Source of the DNA: a virus
Taxonomy: Duplodnaviria > Heunggongvirae > Uroviricota > Caudoviricetes
IMG/VR virus record: IMGVR_UViG_3300042346_001601
Reading direction: 5' to 3' (one strand)
DNA length: 64,000 bases
Shown: positions 2,015 through 63,250 of the stretch, piece by piece
Layout of the letters: every line of letters starts with the position of its first letter
How positions within the stretch are numbered: position 1 is the stretch's first letter
Position numbers and translations under genes: made by a program
Notes under the pieces: model-generated
What the model saw: only the letters and a program-made list of their open reading frames with translations
Told to the model about the DNA's origin: nothing
Database searches by the model: none

Positions 2015-3169
2015 TTAAAAAAGAGTGTTGATCATGAAAAGATTTGGACTGATTGGGTGAAAGCCCATTACTTCGATAAATCTGTTAATAGGATCTAGAA
2101 TTGTTTTGGTGAACTGTTCGTCGTAGTTGACTGGGGGTGCGTATTCATAGGGAAAATTACCCTGGGAATAGGCAAAGACGTTGTTCTCTGCCTCGGATCT
2201 AACCGGCACGAAATAAAATCTGACTTTATCTCCAGATCTCAGAAGAGGATATTTCTCTTTGTACTTGGAGTTGTTTAGCAGAAAATTATGGAAAGCGGAG
2301 GCTCTAACGTGAATCGGACAGGACTTGCTCACCTCGAGTTTTGTCGTGTCATTCAGGATGAATTTTTCGTAGTTGTTAACCGATATTGCGAGAGAGATCT
2401 GCTCGGCTTCTTGGGCCTTGAAATCTTTTTTAATGCTCTTTAACTCCTGAACAAATTCTCTAAGGTTGAAGTTTTTACCCACAGACAGAATATACTTCGT
2501 CAAATAAAGAAGTTTTTCTCTGACAAAAGTGGGGGTTCCTCCCTTGATCATTTCTACCCCTGTTGTTTTAATAAAAGTCAGAGGATCCGAGTGTATCCCG
2601 TCGGCATAGACTTGATTGGTGACATATTTTTTCTTACCCAAGAAAATAGCATTCTTTGAGATTGTTTCAAGTTCAAAGTCCTGGTAGTTTTCAGTGTTCC
2701 ATTTCTTAGAGTAAAGATCAAAACATTTTTTGATGTAGTTTTTCAGCCTTAAATCGTTAATGGCAAGAATAAGTTCTTTGGGATCACCCTGCCAATCACA
2801 GGAAGCAACGACTTCCTCAAAGGTAACATAGTTGGAATCAGTATCAGAGTAAATGACAAGGGGTTTGGCCACTCTTTTAACCTCAGTTAGACCTAATTTT
2901 TCGTGCAGTTCTACGTCCTCGTGCCAAAAATCGTGGAAGTACCGGTTGACTATCTTCTCCGAATATTTAATCATATCCTGACCCTGAAGGGTAACGGCTT
3001 CTGCTACCTCGTGGTTGAAACACACAAAATAACTGTTCCCAATCGAACCATAGATAGAATTCATGGTCAATTTGATCGCCTGTTCTTCATTCTTATATTC
3101 GTTTTTCAGAGCGGTCAGTTCTTCTTTTTTCTGAAGCAGTTCTGATTGGGACAAATTTTCGTACGACAT
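2015..3169 (-). CDS. gp43B: DNA polymerase family B, C-terminal half (split gp43-like)
   Basis: motif B KLTMNSIYG, motif C YSDTDS, KKKY and GVEM motifs; lacks exonuclease and motif A. Confidence 0.93.
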   Translation of the reverse strand: MSYENLSQSELLQKKEELTALKNEYKNEEQAIKLTMNSIYGSIGNSYFVCFNHEVAEAVTLQGQDMIKYSEKIVNRYFHDFWHEDVELHEKLGLTEVKRVAKPLVIYSDTDSNYVTFEEVVASCDWQGDPKELILAINDLRLKNYIKKCFDLYSKKWNTENYQDFELETISKNAIFLGKKKYVTNQVYADGIHSDPLTFIKTTGVEMIKGGTPTFVREKLLYLTKYILSVGKNFNLREFVQELKSIKKDFKAQEAEQISLAISVNNYEKFILNDTTKLEVSKSCPIHVRASAFHNFLLNNSKYKEKYPLLRSGDKVRFYFVPVRSEAENNVFAYSQGNFPYEYAPPVNYDEQFTKTILDPINRFIEVMGFHPISPNLFMINTLF

Positions 3170-3220: not shown

Positions 3221-3228
3221 GATATATA
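3221..3228 (+). promoter_or_regulatory. GATATATA box
   Basis: 4 nt before ATG 3233. Confidence 0.65.
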
Positions 3229-3232
3229 ATTG

Positions 3233-4048
3233 ATGCAAAAGGAGAACCCCATTCAAAGTTTTAAAATTTTCGAGGCAAAAAAAGGAGATCGGGCAGCTGG
3301 CACAAGATTGTCCAGAAAGCAAACAGAAATCTTAAATAAACACGTTGTTGGCACCTGGGAAATGAACAGGAAAACTGACAGGGTGGACATCACAGGCAAT
3401 TTTTATCTTTCTGAACCTTTTAATCAGACCCGGGAAATTGATATTTTCAAGGGGATCGGATTTGGCAAGGTGACCGGGGTTTTTTATTGCACTAGAAATT
3501 TTTTTCAAGATCTAGAGGGATTTCCACAAGAAGTTCAAGGAAGTTTCAACTGTAGCGATAACTCTTTGACCTCCTTGCAGGGAGGACCTACTAAAATAGG
3601 GAAGAATTTCTCTTGCAACAACAACAATCTTAAAGATCTAGTTGGGGGTCCTGTTGAAGTTGGTGGGCAGTACTTGGCCTTTGGTAATCCCTTAACCAGT
3701 TTGGTAGGAGCTCCAGTTAAATTGAAGAAAGGTTTTTACTCCGATTTGGTCGATTTTAATGAAGGTAAATGGAATTATCTAGGTTGGATACAAGCCTTAG
3801 AAGAAGCTAAATCCAAAAATTTTACCCGTATTGAAGCTCTGATTTCAACCCTTCCTTTTTTAGATGTAAATTTCTTGAAGAATTATATTGTCGATAATCC
3901 AGATCGCATGGTGGATCTAGCTATGTTTTGGGAATATCCAGAAGTTGCCAATTTCAGACGGGAGCTAGAAAAAGTTCTAGATCTCAATACGAAGAAAAAA
4001 GTGAAAATTCTGAGCAATATGAGGGGATATTTCTCTACTTTTCGATAA
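3233..4048 (+). CDS. leucine-rich-repeat (LTSLxGxP-type) protein, divergent paralog of the 12.9-15.8 kb array
   Basis: repeats CSDNSLTSLQGGP, CNNNNLKDLVGGP, GNPLTSLVGAP; N-terminus IQSFKIFEA; ATG 4 nt after GATATATA. Confidence 0.8.
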   Translation: MQKENPIQSFKIFEAKKGDRAAGTRLSRKQTEILNKHVVGTWEMNRKTDRVDITGNFYLSEPFNQTREIDIFKGIGFGKVTGVFYCTRNFFQDLEGFPQEVQGSFNCSDNSLTSLQGGPTKIGKNFSCNNNNLKDLVGGPVEVGGQYLAFGNPLTSLVGAPVKLKKGFYSDLVDFNEGKWNYLGWIQALEEAKSKNFTRIEALISTLPFLDVNFLKNYIVDNPDRMVDLAMFWEYPEVANFRRELEKVLDLNTKKKVKILSNMRGYFSTFR

Positions 4049-12892: not shown

Positions 12893-12900
12893 GATATATA
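12893..12900 (+). promoter_or_regulatory. GATATATA box
   Basis: 4 nt before GTG 12905. Confidence 0.65.
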
Positions 12901-12904
12901 AGGC

Positions 12905-13888
12905 GTGAAACACCTCCAATCCTTTTCCCTGTTCGAAGCTCGGAAGACTTCAGATCTGACCCAAAAGCAAAAGACTTTCCTGACCAAATACACGCAAGGG
13001 ACCTGGTCGGTCAACCGACAGACCGGTCTGGTCGATGTGGAAGGAGATTTTGACTGTAGTTACAGCGGACTGAGGTCTCTATCGGGCATCTCGTTCGGAC
13101 ATGTCAGTGGGAATTTCTCCTGTGCCGGCAACGATCTGACCTCCCTGGCCGGGGCACCCCAGACGGTGGGTGGGTATTTCTCCTGCGACAACAACCAGCT
13201 GACCTCCCTGGTCGGGGCACCCCAGACGGTGTGTGGGAGTTTCTTCTGTCAAGGCAACCATCTGACCTCCCTGGCAGGGGCACCTCAGACGGTGGGTGGG
13301 GTTTTCGACTGTTCCGGCAACCAGCTGACGACCCTGGCCGGGGCACCTCAGAAGGTAAATAGGAGTTTCGGCTGTTCCGGCAATCGACTGATCTCTCTGG
13401 CCGGGGCACCTCAGACGGTGGGTGGGAATTTCTACTGCGACAACAACCAGCTGACCTCCCTGGTCGGGGCACCTCAGACGGTGGGTCGGGATTTCTGGTG
13501 TTCCCACAACCGGCTGACGACCCTGGTCGGGGCACCTCAGACGGTGGGTGGGTATTTCTTCTGCGACTCTTTCAAACTCCGGAGTGGGGAATGGAATCCC
13601 CAGGGCTGGTTGGCCATTCTGGCCACTGGAGATAGAAAAGCCCGGAGGCTGATTGTGACCCTGCCCATGTTCGATGCCGGCTTCTGGCTGCAGAAACTGA
13701 AGGGAGACTTGAAGAAAGACGGTCAGGTGCTTCTGCAGCTGGCAGACCTCTGGGATAAGTCAGGCTGGGAGGAGCAGAGACAGGAGATCGAACAGAGACT
13801 CAGTCCTGAGCAGCTTCGGGTCATCAAGGCCCTAAAGACCAAATTGGGCTACGTCAATCCCTGGAAAGACTTTGACGGGATTGTCTAG
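12905..13888 (+). CDS. leucine-rich-repeat protein, array copy 1 (8 variable segments)
   Basis: 21-aa repeat GGxFxCxxNQLTSLxGAPQTV; GTG start; conserved N-cap (MKHLQSFSLFEARK) and helical C-cap. Confidence 0.88.
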   Translation: MKHLQSFSLFEARKTSDLTQKQKTFLTKYTQGTWSVNRQTGLVDVEGDFDCSYSGLRSLSGISFGHVSGNFSCAGNDLTSLAGAPQTVGGYFSCDNNQLTSLVGAPQTVCGSFFCQGNHLTSLAGAPQTVGGVFDCSGNQLTTLAGAPQKVNRSFGCSGNRLISLAGAPQTVGGNFYCDNNQLTSLVGAPQTVGRDFWCSHNRLTTLVGAPQTVGGYFFCDSFKLRSGEWNPQGWLAILATGDRKARRLIVTLPMFDAGFWLQKLKGDLKKDGQVLLQLADLWDKSGWEEQRQEIEQRLSPEQLRVIKALKTKLGYVNPWKDFDGIV

Positions 13889-13889
13889 A

Positions 13890-13897
13890 GATATATA
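13890..13897 (+). promoter_or_regulatory. GATATATA box
   Basis: 4 nt before GTG 13902. Confidence 0.65.
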
Positions 13898-13901
13898 AGG
13901 C

Positions 13902-14684
13902 GTGAAACACCTCCAATCCTTTTCCCTGTTCGAAGCCCGGAAGACTTCAGGCCTGACCCAAAAGCAAAAGACTTTCCTGACCAAATACACGCAAGGGACC
14001 TGGTCGGTCAACCAGCAGACCGGTCTGGTCGATGTGAAAGGAGATTTTGACTGTAGTTACAAAAGACTGAAGTCTCTGCGGGGAATCTCGTTCGGACATG
14101 TCAGTGGGGATTTCTGGTGTTTCAGAAACCAGCTGACGACCCTGGCCGGGGCACCCCAGACGGTGGGTGGGAGTTTCTTCTGTGGCGGCAACCAGCTGAA
14201 GACCCTGGCCGGGGCACCCCAGACGGTGGGTGGGGATTTCTACTGTCAAGGCAACCAGCTGACTTCCCTGGTCGGGGCACCCCAGACGGTAAATGGGGAT
14301 TTCTACTGTTTCAGAAACCAGCTGACGACCCTGGCCGGGGCACCCCAGACGGTGAGGGAGGGTTTCTACTGCGACTCTTTCGAAGTCCGAAGTGGGAAAT
14401 GGAATCCCCAGGGCTGGACCGAGATTCTGGCCAAAAAAAATAGCAAAGCCCGGAGCCTGATTGTGATCCTGTTCGATGCCGGCTTCTGGCTGCAGAAACT
14501 GAAGGGAGATCTGAAGAAAGACGGCCAGGTGCTCCTGCAGCTGGCAGACCTCTGGGATGAACCAGGCTGGGAGGAGCAGAGACAGAAGATCGAACAGAGA
14601 CTCAGTCCTGAGCAGCTTCGGGTCATCAAGGCCCTAAAGACCAAATTGGGCTACGTCGATCCCTGGAAGGACGGGATTGTCTAG
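13902..14684 (+). CDS. leucine-rich-repeat protein, array copy 2 (5 variable segments)
   Basis: same caps and 21-aa repeat as copy 1. Confidence 0.88.
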   Translation: MKHLQSFSLFEARKTSGLTQKQKTFLTKYTQGTWSVNQQTGLVDVKGDFDCSYKRLKSLRGISFGHVSGDFWCFRNQLTTLAGAPQTVGGSFFCGGNQLKTLAGAPQTVGGDFYCQGNQLTSLVGAPQTVNGDFYCFRNQLTTLAGAPQTVREGFYCDSFEVRSGKWNPQGWTEILAKKNSKARSLIVILFDAGFWLQKLKGDLKKDGQVLLQLADLWDEPGWEEQRQKIEQRLSPEQLRVIKALKTKLGYVDPWKDGIV

Positions 14685-14685
14685 A

Positions 14686-14693
14686 GATATATA
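14686..14693 (+). promoter_or_regulatory. GATATATA box
   Basis: 5 nt before GTG 14699. Confidence 0.65.
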
Positions 14694-14698
14694 AGGGC

Positions 14699-15802
14699 GT
14701 GAAACACCTCCAATCCTTTTCCCTGTTCGAAGCCCGGAAGACTTCAGATCTGACCCAAAAGCAAAAGACTTTCCTGACCAAATACACGCAAGGGACCTGG
14801 TCGGTCAACCCAGAGACAGGGCTAGTGGATGTAAAGGGAAGTTTTGCTTGTGGGGGTAAAAGATTAAAGAGCTTACAGGGCATCTCGTTCGGACATGTCA
14901 GTGGGAATTTCTACTGTTCCGTCAACCAGCTGACCTCCCTGGCAGGGGCACCCCAGAAGGTGAGTGGGGATTTCTCCTGTTTCAGAAACCAGCTGACCTC
15001 TCTGGTCGGGGCACCTCAGACGGTGGATGGGCATTTTTACTGTGGCGGCAACCGGCTGACGACCCTGGTCGGGGCACCCCAGACGGTGGATGGGGATTTA
15101 GACTGTTCCTACAACCAGCTGACGACCCTGGCCGGGGCACCTCAGACGATGGATGGGCATTTCTTCTGTTCCTACAACCAGCTGACGACCCTGGTCGGGG
15201 CACCTCAGACGGTGGGTGGGTATTTCTCCTGTTCCAGAAACCAGCTGACCTCCCTGTCAGGGGCACCCCAGAAGGTGGGTGGGAATTTCTCCTGTTCCGG
15301 CAACCAGCTGACCTCCCTGGCAGGGGCACCCCAGACGGTGGATGGGTATTTCTCCTGTTCCTACAACCAGCTGACGACCCTGGCCGGGGCACCTCAGACG
15401 GTGGGTGGGAATTTCTACTGCGACAATAACCGGCTGACCTCCCTGGTCGGGGCACCACAGACGGTGGGTGGGATTCTCCGGTGCGACTCTTTCACACTCC
15501 AAAGTGGGGCATGGAATCCCCTGGGCTGGACCAAGATTCTGGCCACTGGAGATAGCGAAGCCCGGAGCCTGATTGTGACCCTGCCCATGTTCGATGCCGG
15601 CTTCTGGCTGCAGAAACTGAAGGGAGACCTGAAGAAAGACGGCCAGGTGCTCCTGCAGCTGGCAGACCTCTGGGATAAGTCAGGCTGGGAGGAGCAGAGA
15701 CAGGAGATCGAACAGAGACTCAGTCCTGAGCAGCTTCGGGTCATTAAGGCCCTGAAGACCAAATTGGGCTACGTCGATCCCTGGAAGGACGGGATTGTCT
15801 AG
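14699..15802 (+). CDS. leucine-rich-repeat protein, array copy 3 (10 variable segments)
   Basis: same caps and 21-aa repeat as copy 1. Confidence 0.88.
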   Translation: MKHLQSFSLFEARKTSDLTQKQKTFLTKYTQGTWSVNPETGLVDVKGSFACGGKRLKSLQGISFGHVSGNFYCSVNQLTSLAGAPQKVSGDFSCFRNQLTSLVGAPQTVDGHFYCGGNRLTTLVGAPQTVDGDLDCSYNQLTTLAGAPQTMDGHFFCSYNQLTTLVGAPQTVGGYFSCSRNQLTSLSGAPQKVGGNFSCSGNQLTSLAGAPQTVDGYFSCSYNQLTTLAGAPQTVGGNFYCDNNRLTSLVGAPQTVGGILRCDSFTLQSGAWNPLGWTKILATGDSEARSLIVTLPMFDAGFWLQKLKGDLKKDGQVLLQLADLWDKSGWEEQRQEIEQRLSPEQLRVIKALKTKLGYVDPWKDGIV

Positions 15803-15833
15803 AGATATAACATAGGTAAAGTATATATAGATA

Positions 15834-16715
15834 ATGAAAGAAAAAATAAGAAGGATTCAAAACTTCAGAGATTTTAGCAACTTGAATAGTTCCTTTAATT
15901 TAGATTTAGTTCTGGAAAAAATGGGTCGAAGAAGCCCAGTTGAATTGGCAAATTTACTGGAAAAATCCATCAAAGGTCTAGGAACGGACGAAGAACTGTT
16001 GCTGAAAACTTTATTAGAAATTCCTGATTTGAAAACTCTGGGGGAAATTGATGCCATTTTTGCTAAATTTCCAGCCGTTTATTCATATAGAAGTGTTGGA
16101 TCCCTTATTAATTCCGAGTTAGGTTTTTTTGATCAGAAAATAATCGATGAAATAAAAAAACACACGGATCAATTGAAAGTCACAAATGACTTCTTACAAA
16201 AACAAGAAGAATCTCGTTTGAAGGACGAAAAAGTTAGAAGAACCGCGGAAGAAAGCATTAAATTGCACGAGGGTATTAAATATCAAATTTACCGGGACTC
16301 TAGAAAAAATCTATCAATTGGAATTGGAATGAATCTAGAAAGATCGGATGCAGATACCAGGTTAAAGGAAATTGGGGCCAATCCAAAATTAATCAGGTCG
16401 GGAAAAGAGAAATTGAATGACAGTCAAATTCAGATTCTGTTTAAAAAAGACGTGGATAAAGCTATCGAAGATGCCAAATCTCTGGTTCCTGATTTGGGTC
16501 AACAGCCCTTACCGGTACAATGTGTTTTGATAGAAATGGCATTCAACCTCGGAAAGTCGGGCCTGTCCGAATTCAAAAAATTCTTATCTCACATCCAAAA
16601 CATGAATTACAAATTGGCTTCCCAAGAGATGCTCAATTCAACCTGGGCCAAGCAAGTGGGGAACAGAGCAAAAGAGCTGGCCAAAAGAATTGAAACTTAC
16701 GAAGTAAAAAAATAA
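15834..16715 (+). CDS. annexin-like repeat fused to a T4-type (GH24-like) lysozyme
   Basis: N-terminal LANLLEKSIKGLGTDEELL (annexin-like); C-terminal HEGIKYQIYRDSRKNLSIGIG (E-x8-D-x5-S), LIEMAFNLG, STWAKQVGNRA. Confidence 0.75.
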   Translation: MKEKIRRIQNFRDFSNLNSSFNLDLVLEKMGRRSPVELANLLEKSIKGLGTDEELLLKTLLEIPDLKTLGEIDAIFAKFPAVYSYRSVGSLINSELGFFDQKIIDEIKKHTDQLKVTNDFLQKQEESRLKDEKVRRTAEESIKLHEGIKYQIYRDSRKNLSIGIGMNLERSDADTRLKEIGANPKLIRSGKEKLNDSQIQILFKKDVDKAIEDAKSLVPDLGQQPLPVQCVLIEMAFNLGKSGLSEFKKFLSHIQNMNYKLASQEMLNSTWAKQVGNRAKELAKRIETYEVKK

Positions 16716-16723
16716 AAAAAAAA

Positions 16724-17287
16724 ATGAAAATACTGAACTTCGGAGAATTTAGGGATCAGATCAGTGAAAATCTGCAATATCACCTCCAAAATGATCTGAC
16801 TCTAGCCACTAGCGTCTTTAGAATTGGCTCCGAAGCCTGGTACGGGGTAATAGATGAGACTAGACGCCTTTGGGAATCAAATTCGATTGAATTAGACGAC
16901 GACGACACTTTTTTGATTAGCACCGAACTGGGCCGAAGGGGAATCTTTGAAGGGAAAGAGGTGTGGCTGGATTTACCTCTCCCTGAAGAGGATCTGCACG
17001 AGGCAGAATATAAGGGCAGGAAGGTTTCTCTGAACAAACCTTTCAGAACCCCGGGTGCTCCTAGAAAATTTGGGGTTTACACTAAAAACGAGTCTGGTAA
17101 CGTCGTTCTAGTTAGATTCGGCCAGCCAGGTATGAGAATAAGAAATGACGATCCTCAGAGATCAAAATCTTTTAGAGCAAGACACAATTGTGATAACCCA
17201 GGTCCCAAATGGAAAGCCAGATACTGGTCCTGTAACGTGTCAAGATACAGAAAACTACTGGGCATTAAATCTTCAAGTCCATGGTAG
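16724..17287 (+). CDS. conserved T4-like phage protein (DUF6321-like)
   Basis: KVSLNKPF...KFGVY...VRFGQPG...SFRARHNC...ARYWSC; N-terminal ILNFGEF motif. Confidence 0.6.
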   Translation: MKILNFGEFRDQISENLQYHLQNDLTLATSVFRIGSEAWYGVIDETRRLWESNSIELDDDDTFLISTELGRRGIFEGKEVWLDLPLPEEDLHEAEYKGRKVSLNKPFRTPGAPRKFGVYTKNESGNVVLVRFGQPGMRIRNDDPQRSKSFRARHNCDNPGPKWKARYWSCNVSRYRKLLGIKSSSPW

Positions 17288-51913: not shown

Positions 51914-54900
51914 TTAAATTTTCTGGATTCTGAAGGAGAAAGTCAAGGAATAATTTTGACCGACCGTTAGAGGATATTCGAAAGAGTAAATCAAATCGGT
52001 GATTTTAGTTAATCTGTAGTTATTTTGTTGATAGTAACCATATCTGATCCGATCTGGATTAATAAGATCTCCTCTTACCAATAATTCAGTTGTTGTTAAC
52101 GCCTCTCCTGTCTTCTTGACAAACAGATCAAAAGTAATCCCTTCGTAGATAGGAACTATATTCTGGTCAATGTAGGTGTTGATATCGTCGTAGATGCTGT
52201 TGGGATTCCCCAATCCAAACTCGCTCACCATGTTGTCGACGAAAACCTGGCTAACCCCGGAATTTAACAGATACCTTCTTAAGATCCTATCCAATCTGAT
52301 AGAACCGATGACGGTGTTGGAAATTTCGTTCCTTTGCCAGAAGATTTCCACTTGGGGGAAGATGTCTTGATCGAAAACGGGTAAATCAACATTACTGAGA
52401 TAATTTCCTAATTGTCCTACCCCAGTGTTAGAAGTGGAGGGGTTTAAATTTTGAATGGCAGGAACCGCGGCAACCGCCTGAGTGTTAATCGCATCGACAT
52501 TGGTGTTGCCTGATGTTCTCACCAGTTCTAGAGTGATGAAAGTGTAGATGGTAACAGTGTAGGGGGTCTGCATCATCTTTGAACCCAGAAAACTTTTGTT
52601 CTCCTTCATCGATCTAGTTCCGGCAACTGGATTCTGGGTTGTAGCCGAGGTCCAAAGATTGTAGTAGCCAGGATCCCAGCTGGAAAGGAAGACTGAGAAA
52701 TTCTTGTAGGAAATTGGTGATTGACCCACTAAAGGAAACACCGGTCCTTGTGGCAAATTCTGAGAAGCCTGAAGAATATTTTGATCCAGAGAGACTTTAG
52801 AAAAAGCCAGATTTTCTATGAGACCAAATCCTTCTTGCTCGGGGGCAAAGGTACAGTTTCTGAAAGTAATGTCTGCCCCTGGGTTGCCGGAGATTGAATC
52901 CGTTTTATCACCCTTGAATCTGAGCACCTTCTTAAACAAAGGTTCGTATGCGCCTCCATACCTTAAAATATCACTGGCCAGCTCGGAACCACCGTTTTCA
53001 ATCTGATAACTGGTAACAACACTAGTGCCTAGAGTTTGAGGCCCTTCGTAGCTCTTGACTGGATATAAGCCAGTTGGTTTATAGAGAGCAGTTGGCTCAG
53101 TAAAAGAAACTTGAAAAGAATTCTGAGAAACCAGGGTACTTTCAGCAATCGGATCCCAATCGTAAGTAGTATAACTAATATAGGGGCTTTCGTTATTAAC
53201 ACGCAAATAAATTTGGGATAGGGAAATTCTTTTTAGAATAAAGTCGAAATAATCTTCTCCCCCGTCTACTTGAAAAACTGGATAATTAGCGTAGGCTGAT
53301 CTTGGTCCTACTGGGATTGTAACTGGCGAGGAGAACGCAAAGGGAATTTGGAATTCATAGGCTCCTGGCTCGATAGCTTGAAAATCAACTAAATTTTGGG
53401 ATCTTCCAACTGGCCAGGGGTAAGTGTAAGACTGACTGGGGACGTAGAAACTACCAGGTCCGGTATCGGAGACGGACCCGGTAGATCCTATTGGGTAAAA
53501 CAAATTGATCTCTTCTCTTAAATCGGTGTCAAAATCTGGATTTTCAATGGTGAAGATTTTTCCAGAATTAGAAAATAGAGTAACTGAACTGTCTGAAGTA
53601 GTGGAGAGATTCAAGGCCGCAGACAACTTGATATCAGCAATATCGTAGAGAGGTGATCCAGTAGGACCCGTAGCTCCTGTTGTTCCAACGTCCGTGGCCT
53701 CTTTCTTGTCACTCATGCAATACATCAGCAGATAATCCAGGTAGGGTGTTCCTCCAGTTCCTCCAGTCGACCCCAAAGGTAAAGCTCTGTAATCTTTAAT
53801 GACGACGTACACTACCAAGAGGACACATTTTTGTTGCACGTTTTCAATAAACTCATACCTAACTGGACTTTGGATTTCAGAATCATCCTCCGGCACAACT
53901 TTGAGGATGGCAGAGAAATTGTAATTTTCATACCCTCTGTAGTTGATAATGTATTTTTCAAGCTCTGATTTGGGGTTCGTAACACTGCTTCTTTTCTTCA
54001 GTACTATCTTTACTCCCCTAAAGACCGTTTCATAAAAACCGGTGGCATAATTGAAATTGAGGTTGCTAAAGTATTCGTACCCCTGATATTTCAGGCTGTA
54101 GTAGGGAGCTGGATAATCTGCGGTTGAGACAGTAAAGAATGAATTAAAGTACAGGGCGTAATTAGGATTGCCACTACGCAATTTCTGAAAATCAACCTCG
54201 CCCGGCAGATAACTTTTCTGTTTTGAAATATCATCAATTGGGAACTGAGGAGGAACCCCCTGAAGAATCAACCACTCGTGGGTCAGATATCGAGGATCTG
54301 GGCTTTCTTTCTGAAAACTAGGGGAAAAATTGGTGGGGCTGAATGCAGGAGAAGAATTCAGTCTGTAAACATTGCCCCTGGCGTCGGTGCCACCTAAGAA
54401 TCCCCATTTGTTCACGAAAGGCACTATTCTAGAAAAATTGGCCCGGGTCTGGGTGAAGTTTTCCCAGAGATACTGGTATTCTGTTTCAAGCTTACCATAT
54501 TCAAATAACTCTGCCTTTTCAAGAGGATTTGGGATCGGCATTTCGTTAGAGATGGATTGAATTCCGTAAAAACCCTCAAACGAGTTCAGATTTTGCTCGG
54601 GGACAATTGTTGTAGGGTAGGGGGTCTGAGGGTCTACCCAACCAACCTGGCTGAAAACTGCTGGATACACGACAGAAAGAGTTCCAGTTTCAGAGAATAA
54701 TATATCCTGGAAATAGTTGACCGTAGTGCCAATAAAGGCAGAGCCTGGGCCTAAAATCCTCTCCGTGGGTGAACCTTTATCAACCAGTATTTCACCACTC
54801 CTTACGATGTATTTTACACCCTCTACGATTTGACCAGGTTGATCAGGAACAAGTTGGAAATATCGATGGAATTCAGGGGTTGGTGTTTCTCCGTATTTAG

Positions 54901-57900
54901 AGGATAGAAAATCGTAGTCAAAATCTTTCAGATCGAAGAAACTGAAAGCACCTGAGTAGAGAGTAGCTACATCCCAAACATTGAAATTGCCATCACTACC
55001 CAGGCTGATAATAGCTTTAGTATCTTCCAAACTTGCGACCAAAAATTCATTGTAGCCCCTGAATTCAGTCACGGTGCCCGAAGTCAAGGAGGGATTATTA
55101 TTGTAGATTGGACGGTCGACGTATCTGGTAACCGAGGAAATTCTAGAAACGGAACCTACCACTCCCCTACCTCCTTCCACTTCGATCCATTTGCCAGGGG
55201 TAATTTTATCTTTCTCGTTGATTGAAAAGGCAACTCTAGATTTAGAGAAATCAGTACCACCAACGAAATTCAGATTTCTATCTAAAGCTGAAACGTCATA
55301 GTTCTCAATTTTAATCAGACCTGAAGTTGTAAAGGTGAAGTAATTTTGCCAAGTGTTATCCTCCGTAGGAGGAGGATTCGTGTTGCCGGAACTTGGGGCT
55401 GTAATGGCAGAAGAAGCTGTGTAGTAGACATTAAAATAGGAGACAATTTGACCTGCGGAATAGCCGGCCGTGCTGGACCAAATTCCGGCATAAGAAGACT
55501 CAAAAGAATCATAGTCAGAAAAGACTGCAATCTTAAAATCTGTGTTGTAATTCGCTCCGCTGTTTCTGGCTCTAATGATAGCGTTATTGTCAGAATTAGC
55601 AGAATCCCAGATAGTGCTGCTGATGGAGAGAACACATTGAACAAACGAAGATGCGACTTGGGACGTTTGGCCCTGAGAGAAATTGAAATAGTGGGTGTTG
55701 CCGTTGTTATAAGAACTTCCAGCCTGCCAATTGAGAACGCTGCCTCCCAATAAGGAAGATTGAATCAGGTCGTATTTTTCATTTAAAGGTCCTCTAGTTC
55801 CATTCGGCCAAATGATCTTGAAGGTAACTGGAGTACTGCTATTAAAAGTTGATAAAAACTGGATATTAATGTTGGCGTGACCGGAAGATTCAGGTAAAAA
55901 ACCCGAAAAACCACCTATTCTTTCATTGGGGCCGGTAAAATCAAGTAGATTTAGTTGCCTATTGAACACAACTAAATTACCGGATTTCATTTCCATATTC
56001 GACTCAGTTCCGAAATTACCAGAAGGCAAAAGAGGTCCGAATTGACCACTTACCGGGGTGTTGTTGGACCAAGTTTGGGTGGTGGAATCGTAATTTTCAT
56101 TTCTGAGGAGGGAATAAAATTTGTCGTTTTTATCGGTGATATAGAAAAGCTTCTGTGGCTCTAAAACATTTACATCATAGGAGCCAGGAATCCAAGAATT
56201 TGCCTCTTGATAGAAAAGTCTGACTCCGGTCGTGCTACTCAAATAATTAGGGTCAGTACTACTAGCATATCCGACATTATTGGTGGAAGGTTTAGGTAGA
56301 TTGTTGTTGCCGGACAGGTTACGATATTGATAGAAGAAATCTCCATTCAATTTAAAACTTCCTAAATCATTTCTGGAAACATACAGACCAAAATATCTGT
56401 TGATGGAATATAAATCAGAATCAGGATCATTAAAGAGAAATTCTAAATTCAATAAATTGGGAATTATGATCCCATTTCTCTCAAAACCTCCTGTCACATA
56501 ATTCTCGAAATCTATCTGGGGGGTGGAGTTGTTGGAAATCAAGAAATCGTACATCAACTCCCCTTTTTTACTATAACTACCTGTTTTGATATCTACTCCT
56601 TGGTAGTAAGTAAAGGCATTAAGCTGATAGGAGAAATCCAAAGGAGCTGAAGAAAATCCAGGATCGTTAATGATAGATCTAATATATTTACCTATAACGG
56701 TGTCCTCTCGAAGATCAAAAGTTGCTATAGCAGCCGCGTTTGGAAGGATTTTACTGTTGAAGTATGAATTAACGTCATCAACTTCAGGCTGGAAAAGAGT
56801 CTCGTTCATTAGCACAACTTTACCAGATCCTGATACAATTTCGTAGGTTGAGTAAACAGAATTTCCAACCATAAATTCTCCAGCCCTATACAAAATAGGC
56901 CGGGCAAAATTATCAACCCCATAAGAGATGACAAAAGGATCAGGTGAATTGACGTCTTGAATAATTTTGTACTGGGTCCCGCTCAGAATTTCGGTTTGGT
57001 TTGTCGAATACGGATAACTCAAAGGCCCCGGGATTTTAAAGATGACAAAGAAATCTGGAATCTCATCCCGCAACCACAATGGCTGGAAGTACCGGAAATT
57101 CTCGTTGTAATTTCTATCAACAAGTGTAGAGGCACCAGAGCCATAGAAGAAATCGTACTGAGAGCTAAAGCCTTCCACTGGCCGGTCCTCCCCATCAGTA
57201 AGTTTTGCAACTTCAAAAATAACATTTTCTGGCACGGTTCCGTTCATGAAGAATCTGTACAGATCTTTAGAATAGGCGTTTTGTCCCGAAACTCGGTATT
57301 TTTTGAATCTTTGATCGCTAAGAACTGGATTTGCATCCATTGAATTCATCCAAACTGAACCATTAGAGTCCAGTGTTAATTTCACATTTCCTGTTAATTT
57401 TGGATTTGTTCTTAGAACTCCAAAGGAAGAATTGTAATCAAAAAGTTTGGGTAAGAAAGTGCAAAGTCTACCTGTATCGGTTGCTATAACACCCGCAATG
57501 GTGGTCACATTTCTGAGGCAGATATTGCAGATTTCAGAAAAAGCAGAAAGGGAAAAAGGTTGTGAAGTGCCATCGCATCTGGTAACAGTGATAGTAACGG
57601 GATACGAATTTGTGTTTGCGATACACCATCTGATACAATCGTAAATAATAGGAGTAGGGGTAACACTCGGGGTAACACTCGGGGTCGGGGTGCTAGTAGG
57701 GGTGATACTCGGGGTTGGTGTGTTGGTAGGGGTGATACTCGGGGTTGGTGTGTTGGTAGGGGTGGTACTAGGGGTCGGAGTATTAGTAGGAGTGATACTC
57801 GGGGTCGGGGTGTTAGTAGGAGTGATACTCGGGGTCGGGGTGTTAGTAGGAGTGATACTCGGAGTCGGGGTGTTAGTAGGGGTGACGCTCGGTGTTACAC

Positions 57901-60900
57901 TAATAGAAGGAGTAATGCTAGGGGTTGGGGAGTTAGTAGGAGTGATACTAGGTGTCGGGGTGTTAGTAGGGGTGACACTCGGGGTTACAGTGGCAGTAGG
58001 GTTTGAGCACTCACAAATATCAAAACCAACTCCCGCTGGACTGCTGCTGCCTGGATTAGGTGGCCAAACATTAGTTAAGGTTAGGCTTGAGAAGCCCAAG
58101 GGGTTCTTAATTTCCACAACCAGAGAAACCTCATCGTCATAATTGCCAGGAACGGTTGTTAAGAGATTTTTTATATAGCTACCGTTTACATTGGTTCCTA
58201 TTTCAAAACTTGATCTATCACCGCACCAAATAACTGGTTCTAGACTAGGAGTTCCAGTGTTTGTTGTAAAATAGATAAACTCTGAATTACTGTTTTCATC
58301 TACACTAAGGTACAAAATCCTTAAAGTAATTGTAGAAATTGGTTGGCTGAAATTCAGGGTATAATTAGCATTAACCGGCGAAGAGTAGAAAGTATCGATC
58401 AATCCTGAATATTTGTTATTATAGGAATCGAAAATAATTTGCTGAATGTCGCAACCGTAAGTAGGTTCGGGTGCCGCGATTCTCAGTGCATTAGGTGTTG
58501 TAGTTGAAGCTGTAATAGTAACACCATTCCAATTAATTGATCTATACAACCAACTTGTACTAGGAAAAACGTTATTAGGAAAGGGTGGAGAAATGAATTT
58601 ATTAGCAGTTATACAACAAGGGGCAGGACTAGTAGAAGTTAAAGTAGGGGTAGGAGGAGGTGCGCAAATATACCCAGTTCCTCCAGGATTGGTGCATCCT
58701 CCTTGCTGTGAAACTATATCACAAGGATCTGAAACTATCCACTGGGCACAGAAAGTTCCACTTTCCCCCGGAAGCACAGAAAATGAAACAAAATTTACCG
58801 AGGGATCGCAATCGGCATATGAAACCTCGCAAGGCTCACCTATTAGATGTGCATCACAGGCTTGTTGGCTAGTGATGTACCCGTTACCCCTACCGTATAA
58901 GGGATACCAAGTACCAACAGGAGAAAGAGTAGGGGATACAGTAGGGGTAACCGTTGGGGTAGGGGTTGGAGAAGGAGTTGCAGATTCAGAAGGGGTTAAA
59001 CTATTAGTTGGAGTTGGAGTCGGGGTACCAGTTTCGCTCGGGGTTGGAGTTTGAGTAGCAGTTTCACTTGGGGTTGGAGTCGGGGTTCCAGTCTCCGTTG
59101 GGGTTGGAGTTAGAGTTGGGGTCTCGCTCGAAGTTGGGGTTGGAGAAGCGGTGATACTCGGGGTTGGGGTTGAACTAGCGGTTTGAGTAGGTCCTGGTAT
59201 TTCAGGTTCTCCTGAAAAAGACTCACTCGAAGCCCCTTCGATATTCATGAACACCGTATACACTCCTAAATTGTCAGATACGGAAGGAGTTGGGGTTGGA
59301 GTTGAGGAGGGGGTTGGAGTTGGGGTAACATCACAAACACCAGACAGTGAAATTTGTCCCGACGATGCAGTTCCTAGCAAAAGCCAGCGGGGCTCTAAAT
59401 CACACGGGTCCTGTCCAAAAGCATAAAAAGAATTGGCAGAGTTGCTAAAAGGATCTGCTAAATTCGGGGTGTTATAAATAAAATCGCCAGGGCCCAGATC
59501 AGATAGAGGCTTAGTGGACCAGGCAACTACAGGAAGTGGACACGGATCATTATCATTATAGTAATTATAGCAATTACAAATGATTGGTGTGGTAGAAGGA
59601 GTTGGGGTGTTTGTCGGGGTTATGCTGGGAGTTGGTGTTTGTGAGGGAGTCTGAGTGGGGGATGGAACTGGATAAGCACTGGACTCAACCAAGCAAACAT
59701 TATCTAAAACCGGTCCGAAACAAGTATTTGGAGAGCTTCCCCTAAATTGGATAGTATTTGAAATTTGGGTAGCAGTAAAAATAACAGATTTAGTTTCCCA
59801 TCCAAAATCAAAGAAAGGGTTATTGGAAGTAGTCCCGATTACTGCACTAGGGAGTATGTTATTAGTGGATAACAAAGTCCCATTTAGTCTAACCTGAACA
59901 GTTCTCGAAGAATTGTCAGCAAGATTTTGTTTATTAGCGCCAATGTTATAACTTAAAATATAGACAGTACCAGGAGTGAGTGTTAAAGCTTGTTGAACGG
60001 TCCCAAAGGCTGCACAGGAGGATAAATTAATAAAGACGTTGTCTGAATTCGGGCCAAAGAAATTAGGAAAATAAGCTGATCTAATGCTTCTAACATCCAC
60101 GTTGCTAAGGGACCAACCTACTACAGAACCACCCGTTTGGGAAGCTACAGAATTTTGAAAATCCCCATTGACGAAAAGATTAGCCTGAGTACAGGGGCTA
60201 TTGGGGCAGATAAAATTAGTAGCTTGAAGAGCGGCGTTGTAAATAGTTTGTAGGCCTGGGGTATTGTTATAAAGACTTTGGATGGAAGAAGGACCTGGGC
60301 CTGGACCCACCAGGTTGATCATCATTGGATTCCCTGTGATTGGGTCATTGGAAGCAACTTGGGAATATAAGGCAGATGAATAGCACAAATCTGTAGGAAT
60401 TCCTGAAATGCTAACCGAACAAGCAGTAAAATTTGGATCATCAGAATTCCCACCAACTCCAATGACAACTATCTCTGAAGTTCCAGGCATGCCATAAAGA
60501 GACAACTGTTTGAAAAGTGTAGCTTGCTGTAAAAGATAAGCATTAGGTGAACTAGGATTTGTACTCGGATTTCCATCAACTATTAAAACAAGAACTTTCT
60601 TGGCATTGGGTCTACCATAGGAAGTTGCCAGGCTAATAGCTGTATTAATCCCCAATCCTGGATTGGTACCACCAGGAAAAGAAACCCCTGAATAGTCCAG
60701 ACAGGAAGGATAAGAAACCGACTGTTGGCAGAAATAATTATAGATCTGGTTATAATTAGATGAAAACTGCAAACTGTTCAGAGAAGGCTGAATTTGGGGG
60801 TCAGGAGACACATCTGACCAAGAATAAGCTGCAACTCTTACTTTACCCGAATTTATTTCATTGATAAAATTATTGACTATCTGGAGAGAAACTAGTCTTT

Positions 60901-63250
60901 CTGCAATGATTGATCCATTGTATGGGGTGTTAGTGCCAGCTGAAACTGAAATGTCGTATGCAATAATCAGATCAACTTCACAAGGTGGGGGTTCCTGAGT
61001 GCAAATACCCCAAACGAAATTAACAGCCATTGCATTAGTTATCGATACACTTATAGATGTGTGAGTACCTGGAAAATAAATAGTTCCAAAACTTTCATTT
61101 CCCGTTACTTCGTTAGGACCAGTTTTAGTTAATGGGAAAGAGAGGGTTGGGTCCTGCAGAACACAGACAATTTCTAAGTTACTGGTGAATTGAGCAACTC
61201 CCGTTGTTCCTCCACTTCCAAGAGAGTAAATTGCTAGAGAAGGATCCGTAACTGGTCTATCGAAAGTGAAAGTGTATACTTCCGTTCCCGTTACCTGATT
61301 TACATTCAGGCCCAAAGCTTCAGTCAGCTGGGGATTTTTAGGACAAAGTAAAGCAAAATATGGGGTATTTGTAACATTATAATAGGAAGTGTTGGGTTGA
61401 GTGGACGAAACGGTAACAGTGGCAATCTGACTGTTCCCCGTATTGTTATTTTCATAAAATCTACCTACCCTATCAAATATATTATTTAAATTCCAAAAAC
61501 TCCAAGAAATGTCTTGAGGAGGACATCCAGTGGATCCGGCAGGGGAAGGAGAAACAGTTGGAGTATTTGAAGGGGTGGGTGAATTGGTTGGGGTGACGCT
61601 TGGTGTTTGTGATGGTGTGTTATTAGGGGTTTTTGTGGGGGTGTTTGTTGGAGTTTTGGTAGGAGTCTGGGTGTTGGTAGGGGTCTGGGTGTTGGTAGGA
61701 GTCTGGGTGTTGGTAGGGGTCTGAGTATTGGTGGGGGTCTGGGTGTTGGTAGGGGTCTGGGTGTTGGTAGGGGTAACAGTAGGAGTTACGCTGGGCGTAA
61801 CGCTAGGTGTTTGAGAAGGGGTTGAGTTAGGAGTCTGGGTGTTGGTAGGAGTCTGGGTGTTGGTAGGAGTCTGGGTGTTGGTAGGAGTCTGGGTGTTGGT
61901 AGGGGTCTGAGTATTGGTGGGGGTCTGGGTGTTGGTAGGAGTCTGGGTGTTGGTAGGGGTCTGGGTGTTGGTAGGGGTCTGGGTGTTGGTAGGAGTCTGG
62001 GTGTTGGTAGGGGTAACGCTCGAGGTTGGAGTGTTGGTAGGAGTCTGAGTGTTGGTAGGAGTCTGAGTGTTGGTAGGAGTCTGGGTGCTGGTAGGAGTCG
62101 GGGTGTTGGTAGGGGTCTGAGTATTGGTGGGGGTCTGAGTGTTGGTAGGAGTCTGGGTGTTGGTAGGAGTCGGGGTGTTGGTAGGGGTCTGAGTATTGGT
62201 GGGGGTCTGAGTATTGGTGGGGGTCTGAGTGTTGGTAGGAGTCTGGGTGGGGGTTGGGGTAGGAGTAGGAGTAGGACAGACTCCTCCTGTACAAAGAGGA
62301 GCAGAATTGTTGTATCCGCAAGTAGTGGCATTAGTAAAAATAGAAACGTTATCTACAATTGCCCGGGCACACAACCTTCCCGAATCACCTGTGGAAAGAT
62401 CAATGGCTTGAACTGCACCTTCACAATCAATATAATTGACAGCAATAGTATTTCCCGTTGTGTTGTTGTACTCATAACATCTACATTCAAAACCACAAAA
62501 ACCCCCTGGGGAACATCCTACTACGGTATTCCAACAACCTGAATTATATCCAGGGACAGGAATTACATTAAAAGCAGCATTGATCCCCTTATAACAAACC
62601 TGAATCCTTGTTCTAGGGCTGAGCGTCGTTGATATTGTCAGATTGTTACAACCCGTATAAGAAATAAATCCTGTTTGGGTGTAAGAGATGTTAACAACTT
62701 GCATGCAGTAACATGCATCTTCGGGGACAACACTGTTCTGAATGGGTCCCGTGGATCCGATGAAATCGGCCGTTCCTCCTTTTACTTCAGGCTGGGCTAC
62801 CCCTATAAAAAAACCAAAAGATCCTGTTCCCCCTGTAAGTCCTTGGTCAGGTCCAAAGCTTAGAACTTCCTGTCGGCAGGAACAACTTTCTAGATCAACT
62901 GAAAAATTGTCGAAATTTTCATATTCATAGACATAACAAGGAGCCGAAGTAAGACACGGAGTTGGAGTAGGGGTTGGAGTCACGGTACTCGTTACCGATG
63001 GTGTAGGCGTAGGGGTGGGAGTAATAGAGGGGGTGGGAGTTGGGGTAATCGAACCACAAGAGCTTTCTTGTGAGACCCCACCTTCTTCACCAATAATAAA
63101 TAAAACAGAATTTTCTATAGCACAAATTGAAGCGGTTGCACCCGCTCCCACATTAAGTTGTTCGGTTGACCCATCAACACAATCTTGGTAATCATAAGTT
63201 GCTGCTTGTAAACCTACCTGACTTACTAAGTAATTATAACAATTTGGCAT
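51914..63250 (-). CDS. giant 3778-aa virion/adhesin protein: Cys-rich modules, Pro/Thr linkers, vWA domain, carbohydrate-binding-like domain, long C-terminal structural region
   Basis: uninterrupted ORF; v[26 protein letters not shown]; LFVNGDF...GPVLDNV DUF642/galactose-binding-like segment. Confidence 0.8.
57650..58000 (-). repeat. 30-bp coding tandem repeat ([10 protein letters not shown])n
   Basis: repeated gtgatactcggggt(c/t)gg(g/t)gtgtt(a/g)gtagg units. Confidence 0.9.
61545..62275 (-). repeat. 18-bp coding tandem repeat (TPTNTQ)n
   Basis: repeated ggagtctgggtgttggta / ggggtctgggtgttggta units. Confidence 0.95.

Follow-up and report, generated by a model that had tools for sequence, protein, structure and literature searches.

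The internal proteins of phage T4 are a diverse, injected anti-restriction set with only the capsid-targeting sequence (CTS) in common (PMC3012670). IPI, IPII, IPIII and Alt carry this sequence as a short N-terminal leader, which reads MKTYQEFIAEA in IPII and IPIII. T4 proteins are cleaved after Glu at ITE and LTE sites (PMC5694885). The internal proteins otherwise have small, unique folds, and their genes are highly polymorphic between strains.

Several families of LRR proteins are also relevant. The 21-residue bacterial LRRs of the IRREKO class (PMC2946307) and of Internalin-J from Listeria (PDB 3bz5) combine a first half, LxxLxCxxNxLxxL, with a second half, DLxx(N/L/Q)xx, in a nested 10/11 periodicity. 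Shigella IpaH, Salmonella SspH1 and Yersinia YopM are short bacterial-type LRR solenoids that grip host proteins once they have been delivered into the target cell. Plant NLR and RLP LRRs, fungal NLRs with highly internally conserved repeats (PMC4986451) and lamprey VLRs have near-alike repeats with few hypervariable exposed positions. They also show repeat-number changes, paralog shuffling and tandem gene clusters. We found no published description of a hypervariable head-tagged LRR array, and our literature search on phage LRR ejection proteins returned nothing relevant.

Our analysis of a 64,000-nucleotide stretch of DNA (the window) from a large uncultured T4-related phage revealed three consecutive LRR genes, here called c1, c2 and c3. 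The features of the locus are as follows.

3230..4048, + strand: AT-rich, divergent paralog of 272 aa (GC3 0.37), 38-43% identical to c3, with its own GATATATAA box at 3221-3229
12893..12901, + strand: GATATATAA late-promoter-like box before c1, 3 nt from the start; the box is conserved upstream of the LRR genes in related phages
12905..13888, + strand: LRR gene c1, 327 aa, GTG start; leader (residues 1-11), N-cap, 8 units plus a half unit, helical C-domain
12905..12937, + strand: leader codons of c1 (MKHLQSFSLFE, then Ala), a CTS-like tag, putatively cleaved at L-x-E
13052..13618, + strand: LRR block of c1 (residues 50-238)
13890..13898, + strand: GATATATAA box before c2
13902..14684, + strand: LRR gene c2, 260 aa; leader and caps as in c1, 5 units plus a half unit
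14049..14426, + strand: LRR block of c2 (residues 50-175)
14686..14694, + strand: GATATATAA box before c3
14699..15802, + strand: LRR gene c3, 367 aa; leader and caps as in c1, 10 units plus a half unit
14846..15538, + strand: LRR block of c3 (residues 50-280)
15834..16715, + strand: downstream neighbour gene, 293 aa; N-terminus leader-like, phage lysozyme domain present

The three genes are separated by spacers of 13-14 nt and have the leader, the N-cap and the C-domain in common. The repeat unit is a 63-bp, 21-residue LRR. Canonical GAPQ units in the 21-residue register number 7, 4 and 9 in c1, c2 and c3. With the one degenerate first unit of each gene, the numbers become 8, 5 and 10, as given by an earlier sequence-only reading of this DNA. 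A half unit ends each series, and the spacing between units is exactly 21 residues throughout. Tandem Repeats Finder located period-63 arrays at 13107-13567, 14104-14371 and 14901-15473, with 78-84% identity and no indels. The sequence-only reading called the caps near-identical. The caps are shared, and the wording is slightly generous, as DNA identity among the copies is 85-93% in the first 210 nt and 88-92% in the last 330 nt. Its observations of a GC-rich array and of a fourth, divergent paralog near 3233 both held. GC content is 0.54-0.57 at 13-16 kb compared to about 0.40 in the flanks, and GC3 of the array genes is 0.69-0.70 compared to a genome median of 0.38. A single-protein scan of genome contigs for a cellular donor of the GC-rich genes returned only one 3.5-kb MAG fragment, and no donor was identified. 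The array is 100% identical in two further independent assemblies, which indicates that it is not a one-off assembly artefact. Long antisense ORFs within it (up to 158 aa) were rejected as genes; they are a consequence of the stop-poor GC-rich repeats.

The sequence-only reading described the units as promoter plus gene. A GATATATAA box does precede each gene, 3-4 nt ahead of the start codon. The window contains 11 copies of the box, compared to 0.38 expected, and the endolysin, tail-fibre-like and virion structural genes also have it upstream. A promoter role is plausible from this distribution. The short distance to the start codon means that the box could instead serve translation initiation. 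Scans of the array for sigma-70 promoters and terminators gave background levels.

Structure prediction and sequence comparison both place the array proteins in the LRR superfamily, in agreement with the earlier identification. The AlphaFold2 model of c2 (pLDDT 91.7) is a solenoid, in which residues 1-15, containing the leader, are disordered (pLDDT below 50). The best sequence match of c3 among solved structures is Internalin-J (E 1.9e-15), followed by the LRR domains of SspH1 and IpaH. Top matches in PDB and BFVD are LRR proteins without exception. The motif F-x-C-x-x-N-x-L-x-x-L is present in 20 of the 20 canonical units, with Cys invariant at repeat position 3, although the Pfam match is marginal (LRR_4, 27.5 bits against a cut-off of 27). 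The model and these matches indicate that the proteins are Internalin-J-like 21-residue Cys-ladder solenoids. They have the first half of the IRREKO unit. Unlike in that class, the second half is x-G-A-P-Q-T-V-x-G-x, with G-A-P-Q invariant, and neither DLxx(N/L/Q)xx nor the nested 10/11 periodicity is present. The caps also differ, the array proteins lack a cell-wall anchor and a secretion signal, and the family belongs to phages rather than bacteria.

The predicted mature proteins are small (28-38 kDa), basic (pI 8.4-9.3) and soluble, with no membrane segment or catalytic domain. The C-domain comprises about 100 residues in six helices and has no Pfam match. Structure searches with it returned only generic helical repeats (HEAT/TOG/Sel1-like, Z up to 6.4). 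It is far smaller than the NEL domain. The array proteins resemble IpaH, SspH1 and YopM in the solenoid but appear to lack the NEL ubiquitin-ligase domain, and their delivery would be by phage capsid and tail rather than type III secretion.

As the sequence-only reading had noticed, all three proteins begin with a T4 CTS-like leader; it ends in L-F-E before Ala. By sequence, MKHLQSFSLFE/A is a match to the CTS of IPII and IPIII (MKTYQEFIAE/A) and ends in a prohead-protease-type site (slashes mark the cut, putative here). Both leaders have a hydrophobic-x-Glu end, and the one here is one residue longer. It has the form of a CTS-like leader, about 10 residues long with (L/I)-x-E preceding a small residue. 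Among homologs, the pattern M-[KRQ]-[HY]-[LI]-[QK]-x-[FY]-x-[LVI]-[FY]-E-[SA] is present in 106 of the 120 best homologs. In these, P3 is L/V/I, P1 is Glu and P1’ is Ser/Ala, and other amino-acid changes are conservative. A leader-like pattern is also found at 18 of 210 ORF N-termini, compared to 1-4 in internal windows. These leaders are on unrelated protein bodies, including an ATP-grasp enzyme and a lysozyme-domain protein, much as the T4 leader is shared by otherwise unrelated proteins.

A T4-type head is suggested by related phages. Each of the four complete relatives tested that carry the LRR family has both Gp23 (PF07068) and Peptidase_S77 (PF03420). The topoisomerase subunit of three of these is 61-62% identical to that of this phage, and that of the fourth 29%. 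The phage’s own 177-kb contig is 74% complete, so the lack of a T4-type capsid, portal or protease in it (Pfam; phmmer searches using head and tail proteins of T4, among them gp17, gp18, gp20, gp21 and gp23) is not evidence of absence, and the head type rests on the relatives. The head protease is likewise seen only in relatives, and packaging and cleavage here are putative.

The repeats are strongly diversified at five codons. The highest column entropies are those of repeat positions 21, 2, 5, 4 and 19 (2.77-1.92 bits), whereas C3, N6, L8, L11, G13, A14, P15 and Q16 are invariant. As the repeats of any LRR vary chiefly at the x positions, entropy by itself would be trivial; the argument depends on the codon pattern together with the comparison of strains. 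At codons 2, 4, 5, 19 and 21, the first and second bases change and the third is kept (NNC or NNT). Minimal changes are 27 nonsynonymous to 1 synonymous at these codons, compared to 13 to 12 at scaffold codons (Fisher p = 2e-4), and pN/pS is 4.7 compared to 0.44 elsewhere. Strong diversification of these five positions in the repeat is evident from this pattern. The in/out alternation and the LRR consensus support the assignment of the variable residues to outward-pointing alternate positions of the predicted LxxLxCxxN strand.

Strain comparison points in the same direction. A scan of IMG/VR for close relatives with a single protein returned only the phage’s own genome; an alignment-based scan did find relatives. 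In one of them (L019, 96.7% DNA identity), 0 of 156 nt differ in the N-cap and 92 of 444 nt (20.7%) in the LRR block, compared to 92 of 3000 nt upstream. This is a seven-fold excess of LRR-block divergence between 97%-identical strains. The relative also has another repeat number and a different second gene. Within the array, repeats do not group by gene. One module is present at 14118, 14307 and 14978, a second at 13247 and 14244, and a third at 13184 and 13436. Caps are mosaic between genes and strains, and synonymous polymorphisms travel with the LRR repeats, as expected from recombination.

These results bear on most of what the sequence-only reading had proposed. The three shared modules are exactly where it had put them, and the variation is centered on the x positions around F-x-C-x-x-N as it described. 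Of the checks it named, structure prediction gave a solenoid. Codon changes at the five variable positions taken together gave the ratios above, and comparison of genomes showed strain-level hypervariability of the LRR block, with variation within the array seen between genomes only. Its proposal of diversified binders built by repeat shuffling fits the mosaic repeats and caps and the codon diversification, but a mechanism of the lamprey type is not supported.

The leader, the fold and the diversified face suggest that the three genes probably encode variable binders that enter the host together with the DNA. We consider the chances evenly balanced that the proteins are late-expressed, packaged, cleaved and injected binders of fast-changing host proteins that form an inherited repertoire. 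The genes would be expressed late from the GATATATAA box. The 11-residue leader would act like the T4 CTS and direct the proteins into the prohead core, where a T4-type prohead protease would cut after L-F-E. The mature proteins would exit with the DNA at infection. Their variable concave face may then bind fast-changing host proteins, most plausibly defence enzymes, like T4 IPI*. Two processes would diversify the inherited repertoire: point mutation, with strong positive selection acting on five codons of each repeat, and homologous recombination, which would link repeats, paralogs and strains. In contrast to the small, unique T4 internal proteins, these would form a tandem multigene family of LRR binders. 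Compared to the plant, fungal and lamprey families, the array is virus-borne, lacks a signalling domain and involves no somatic assembly as in VLRs, and its presumed direction is offence, the binding of host factors, rather than host immunity.

Alternatively, the proteins may be late-expressed binders that do not enter the head. They could be virion-surface or fibre adhesins for variable host surface structures, or act in the cell late in infection, with the N-terminus serving leaderless mRNA translation or virion docking. Hypervariable binders of phages are typically receptor-binding proteins, LRR domains have been proposed as host-recognition modules in phage Goslar, and a box 3-5 nt from the start codon suggests a leaderless mRNA. 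However, these small solenoids with a generic helical C-domain contain no fibre, anchor or trimerisation domain. The presence of the leader type on an enzyme and a lysozyme-domain protein also argues against this role, and its conservative changes and invariant Glu followed by Ser/Ala fit a protease site better than an RNA signal. We regard this alternative as unlikely.

A structural or DNA-condensing role of leader-packaged LRR proteins, with no specific host target, appears quite improbable. It would agree with their basic pI and with the make-up of T4 heads, where about 1000 molecules of internal protein lie within the DNA (PMC3012670). However, it leaves unexplained why diversification is limited to five codons per repeat whose residues are predicted to be exposed and why the LRR block diverges seven-fold in excess between close strains.

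The kept third base (NNC or NNT) resembles the output of a diversity-generating retroelement (DGR). In such a reading, the variable codons would be written by a DGR that mutates the adenines of AAY template codons, or by some other targeted mutator. We find this highly implausible. No reverse transcriptase (PF00078) was found in the 74%-complete contig in a search that matched control genomes, although a quarter of the genome is missing and one could lie there. No non-coding template copy of the repeat was seen, and no further copy lies outside the genes. The adenines of the invariant codons AAC (6), GCA (14) and CAG (16) are unchanged in 19-20 of 20 repeats. The ‘variable regions’ would be 23 separate ones over three genes rather than one C-terminal VR, and synonymous polymorphisms move with repeats as under recombination.

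Programmed copy-choice assembly of cassettes into an expressed gene within the phage lineage, as in lamprey VLRs, would account for the repeat modules common within and between genes and for the mosaic genes of the close strain, but hardly merits consideration: every copy is complete with its own box, leader and caps, neither the window nor the contig contains an incomplete acceptor gene or cap-less donor cassettes, two other assemblies are identical over the array, and variation is between genomes only.

The family of these LRR proteins extends well beyond this phage. IMG/VR contains 450 loci, with arrays of up to 11 genes in some phages, and clustering of the leader and N-cap module alone at 50% identity gives at least 705 clusters. 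Neither the N-cap nor the C-domain occurs in any GenBank phage, and no cultured phage was found with the family’s caps. It is possible, though we put this forward only tentatively, that T4-related jumbo phages of lakes and oceans carry an inherited, recombining, antibody-like LRR repertoire of 10-40 genes per genome. These T4-type-tagged proteins would be injected before gene expression, each variant neutralising a different defence allele or class. If true, such a repertoire would mirror, on the side of the virus, the immune receptors built on LRRs. It would carry the concept of T4 internal proteins beyond a handful of small proteins to entire multigene repertoires, and injected proteins of this kind would constitute a large, widespread class of pre-made phage counter-measures. 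Their binding faces would be a readable record of the arms race and a handle for finding the targeted host defence proteins. The LRR proteins may also provide a natural scaffold for engineered, capsid-loadable binders.

Like T4 ipII and ipIII, the LRR array adjoins a lysozyme gene. The leader-like N-terminus of its product suggests that this neighbour is possibly co-packaged cargo.

The window is taken from a linear viral contig of 177 kb (GC 39%; 74% complete by CheckV), where it spans bases 103315-167314. Among the neighbouring genes are those for a T4-like type II topoisomerase (both subunits), UvdE, DnaJ and a gp32-like single-strand DNA-binding protein. The three LRR genes c1-c3 are arranged head to tail with spacers of 13-14 nt, and all start with GTG. 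Each is preceded by a copy of the late-promoter-like box GATATATAA.

12893-12901, box upstream of c1
12905-13888, +, ORF, LRR gene c1
13890-13898, box upstream of c2
13902-14684, +, ORF, LRR gene c2
14686-14694, box upstream of c3
14699-15802, +, ORF, LRR gene c3
3221-3229, box upstream of the divergent paralog

Period-63 arrays are present in all three genes, and the spacing in the protein register is exactly 21 residues throughout. c1, c2 and c3 contain 7, 4 and 9 canonical units, and each gene adds a degenerate unit at the start of its series and a half unit at the end. Counted with the degenerate first units, these reproduce the 8, 5 and 10 units of the sequence-only reading. The three k-mers it reported as common to repeats within or between genes occur exactly where it placed them, and the GC excess of the array over the rest of the window and the fourth LRR paralog (3230-4048) were confirmed. 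The locus is 100% identical in two further assemblies, so the array is not an assembly accident. Antisense ORFs of 142-158 aa through the repeats (13079-13535 and 14982-15458, -) are not genes; they are a product of the stop-poor, GC-rich repeat. The divergent paralog adjoins a 384-aa ORF (2015-3169, -) in which, of the family B DNA polymerase motifs, only the C-terminal ones are present; the polymerase may be split. A second GC-rich LRR array is found at the contig start (G000:C1:2-337, 355-1287), and the contig begins inside it. Several public contigs also terminate within such arrays (L018, L019, L021-L024). The arrays break short-read assemblies, and copy numbers per genome are therefore lower bounds.

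The identification of the products as LRR proteins holds. Pfam gave a single, marginal match (LRR_4). An AlphaFold2 model of c2 built with 36 homologs has a mean pLDDT of 91.7. Residues 1-15 are disordered in it; the N-cap behind them is a helix plus a strand, and the solenoid leads into a C-domain of six helices. The nearest solved structures by fold are the LRR domains of IpaH, SspH1, YopM, internalin and VLR. Sequence comparison ranks Listeria Internalin-J first (E 1.9e-15), ahead of SspH1 and IpaH9.8. The unit resembles the IRREKO class, 21-residue LRRs with the first half LxxLxCxxNxLxxL (PMC2946307), in both length and first half. Its second half differs, being an invariant G-A-P-Q and then T-V-x-G-x, so the unit is a variant of this class and not a member. 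Folded alone, the C-domain reached pLDDT 75 and matched generic helical repeats only (Z <=6.4). No catalytic domain was found in the LRR proteins by Pfam, fold or sequence comparison. The predicted mature proteins are 28-38 kDa, basic and without a membrane segment.

Among the 20 canonical units, eight repeat positions are invariant and column entropy is highest at positions 21, 2, 5, 4 and 19. These are interleaved with conserved inward residues (V18, G20, F1, C3 and N6), and this alternation together with the LRR consensus places them on the predicted outward face of the strand. Entropy peaks of this kind are common to any LRR protein, so the codon-level evidence is the informative part. The five variable codons change at bases 1-2 and keep base 3, giving NNC or NNT. 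Pairwise pN/pS is 4.7 at these positions and 0.44 at the other 16 codons. Minimal changes are 27 non-synonymous to 1 synonymous in variable codons and 13:12 in scaffold codons (Fisher p = 2e-4). Diversification is concentrated at the x positions of the predicted strand, as had been proposed.

In the close relative L019 the flanking genes are those of the window, and the two sequences are 96.7% identical over 8.6 kb. Its differences from the window are concentrated in the repeats.

Nucleotide differences between L019 and the window
Leader + N-cap: 0/156
LRR block: 92/444 (20.7%)
3 kb upstream: 92/3000 (3.1%)

The first gene of L019 has one repeat fewer, and its C-part most resembles a paralog in the other array. 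The second has the N-cap and C-tail of another subtype. The repeats form no groups by gene or position; the nearest neighbor is often in a different gene or genome, and the mean distance is equal within and between genes (12.0 and 12.3 of 63 nt). This variation is explained by positively selected point mutation combined with recombination between repeats, between paralogs and between strains. A diversity-generating retroelement is not supported, since no reverse transcriptase was found in the contig (74% complete) by a search that did match control genomes, no template-like repeat copy lies outside the LRR genes, and conserved adenine-containing codons are unaltered across repeats. We retain a small reservation for a reverse transcriptase in the missing quarter of the genome. 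Cassette assembly like that of lamprey VLRs, suggested earlier, is not borne out, as every LRR copy is a complete gene and no donor cassettes were found.

GC3 is 0.69-0.70 in c1-c3 and 0.73 in the copy at G000:C1:355-1287, compared to a genome median of 0.38. These four have the highest GC3 among all ORFs of >=200 aa, and the excess is present in caps as well as repeats. Native GC3 (0.36-0.41) is seen in four further LRR paralogs of the genome. Either a recent import from a GC-richer phage with subsequent amplification, or biased gene conversion, would therefore seem to lie behind the GC-rich lineage. A single-protein scan of genome contigs found no cellular donor.

The window contains 11 copies of GATATATAA (0.38 expected) and the genome 22, of which 20 have an ORF start <=19 nt away. 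Behind it lie, among others, genes for an endolysin, a tail-fibre-like protein and two structural proteins of the virion. It is likely a late promoter. The box is conserved in front of LRR genes in related phages (loci L027-L044), and there as here the gap from box end to start codon is 3-6 nt, a spacing that points to late mRNAs with little or no 5' leader.

All three proteins start with MKHLQSFSLFE followed by Ala, bearing out the proposed likeness to a capsid-targeting sequence (CTS). T4 IPII and IPIII start with MKTYQEFIAEA, and in T4 head proteins cleavage follows the Glu of sites like ITE and LTE (PMC5694885). Of the 120 best homologs, 106 fit the pattern M-[KRQ]-[HY]-[LI]-[QK]-x-[FY]-x-[LVI]-[FY]-E-[SA]. 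Within this genome, 18 of 210 ORF N-termini show a leader-like pattern, versus 1-4 for any one internal window of 20 residues. The proteins that bear it are otherwise unrelated; among them are an ATP-grasp enzyme and a lysozyme-domain protein encoded directly downstream of the array. The former, apparently, is a 488-aa protein (73-1539, -) starting with MNSLPAVLNFCNFLNESKEE, which would be a candidate enzyme cargo. The two genes 3' of the array (15834-16715 and 16724-17287, both +) likewise encode leader-like N-termini, MKEKIRRIQNFRDF and MKILNFGEFRDQISE. The first contains the phage lysozyme domain and may be an ejected internal lysozyme; a separate endolysin is encoded elsewhere. In T4, ipII and ipIII also adjoin a lysozyme gene. 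Outside the window, a 98-aa ORF (G000:C1:35368-35664, +) starts with MKTYHQFLNEA, close to the T4 sequence.

No T4-type capsid, portal or protease was detected in the phage's own contig (74% complete). Four complete relatives (289-413 kb) each contain 13-45 matches to the LRR protein, and all four encode Gp23 (E to 1e-41) and a Peptidase_S77 domain. Their topoisomerase subunit is 61-62% identical to that of the window phage in three and 29% in the fourth. From these relatives we infer a T4-type head and protease for the window phage. At least 1687 whole-protein homologs exist, and the leader and N-cap by themselves match at least 705 clusters (50% identity), in nearly every case at residue 1. 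IMG/VR contains 450 loci, many in 100-600 kb contigs, and the longest tandem arrays have 11 genes. The LRR caps (N-cap and C-domain) are absent from the GenBank phages searched; a Vibrio phage shares the 21-residue unit but lacks the leader. Literature searches found no published description of leader-tagged phage LRR arrays. T4 internal proteins have been described as diverse injected anti-restriction proteins with the CTS as their only common feature (PMC3012670). The best reading, to which we give about an even chance, is that the array encodes CTS-tagged, hypervariable LRR binders, which would be expressed late, packaged and then ejected as T4 internal proteins are. An anti-defence target would be a further step beyond this reading.

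Elsewhere in the window, a 3778-aa ORF (51914-63250, -) contains long Thr/Pro-rich tandem linkers. One is (TQTPTN)n, where an 18-bp unit is present in 33 copies (61656-62249); a second repeats a 10-letter protein unit at 57669-57985. The product resembles a giant, mucin-like fibre or structural protein.
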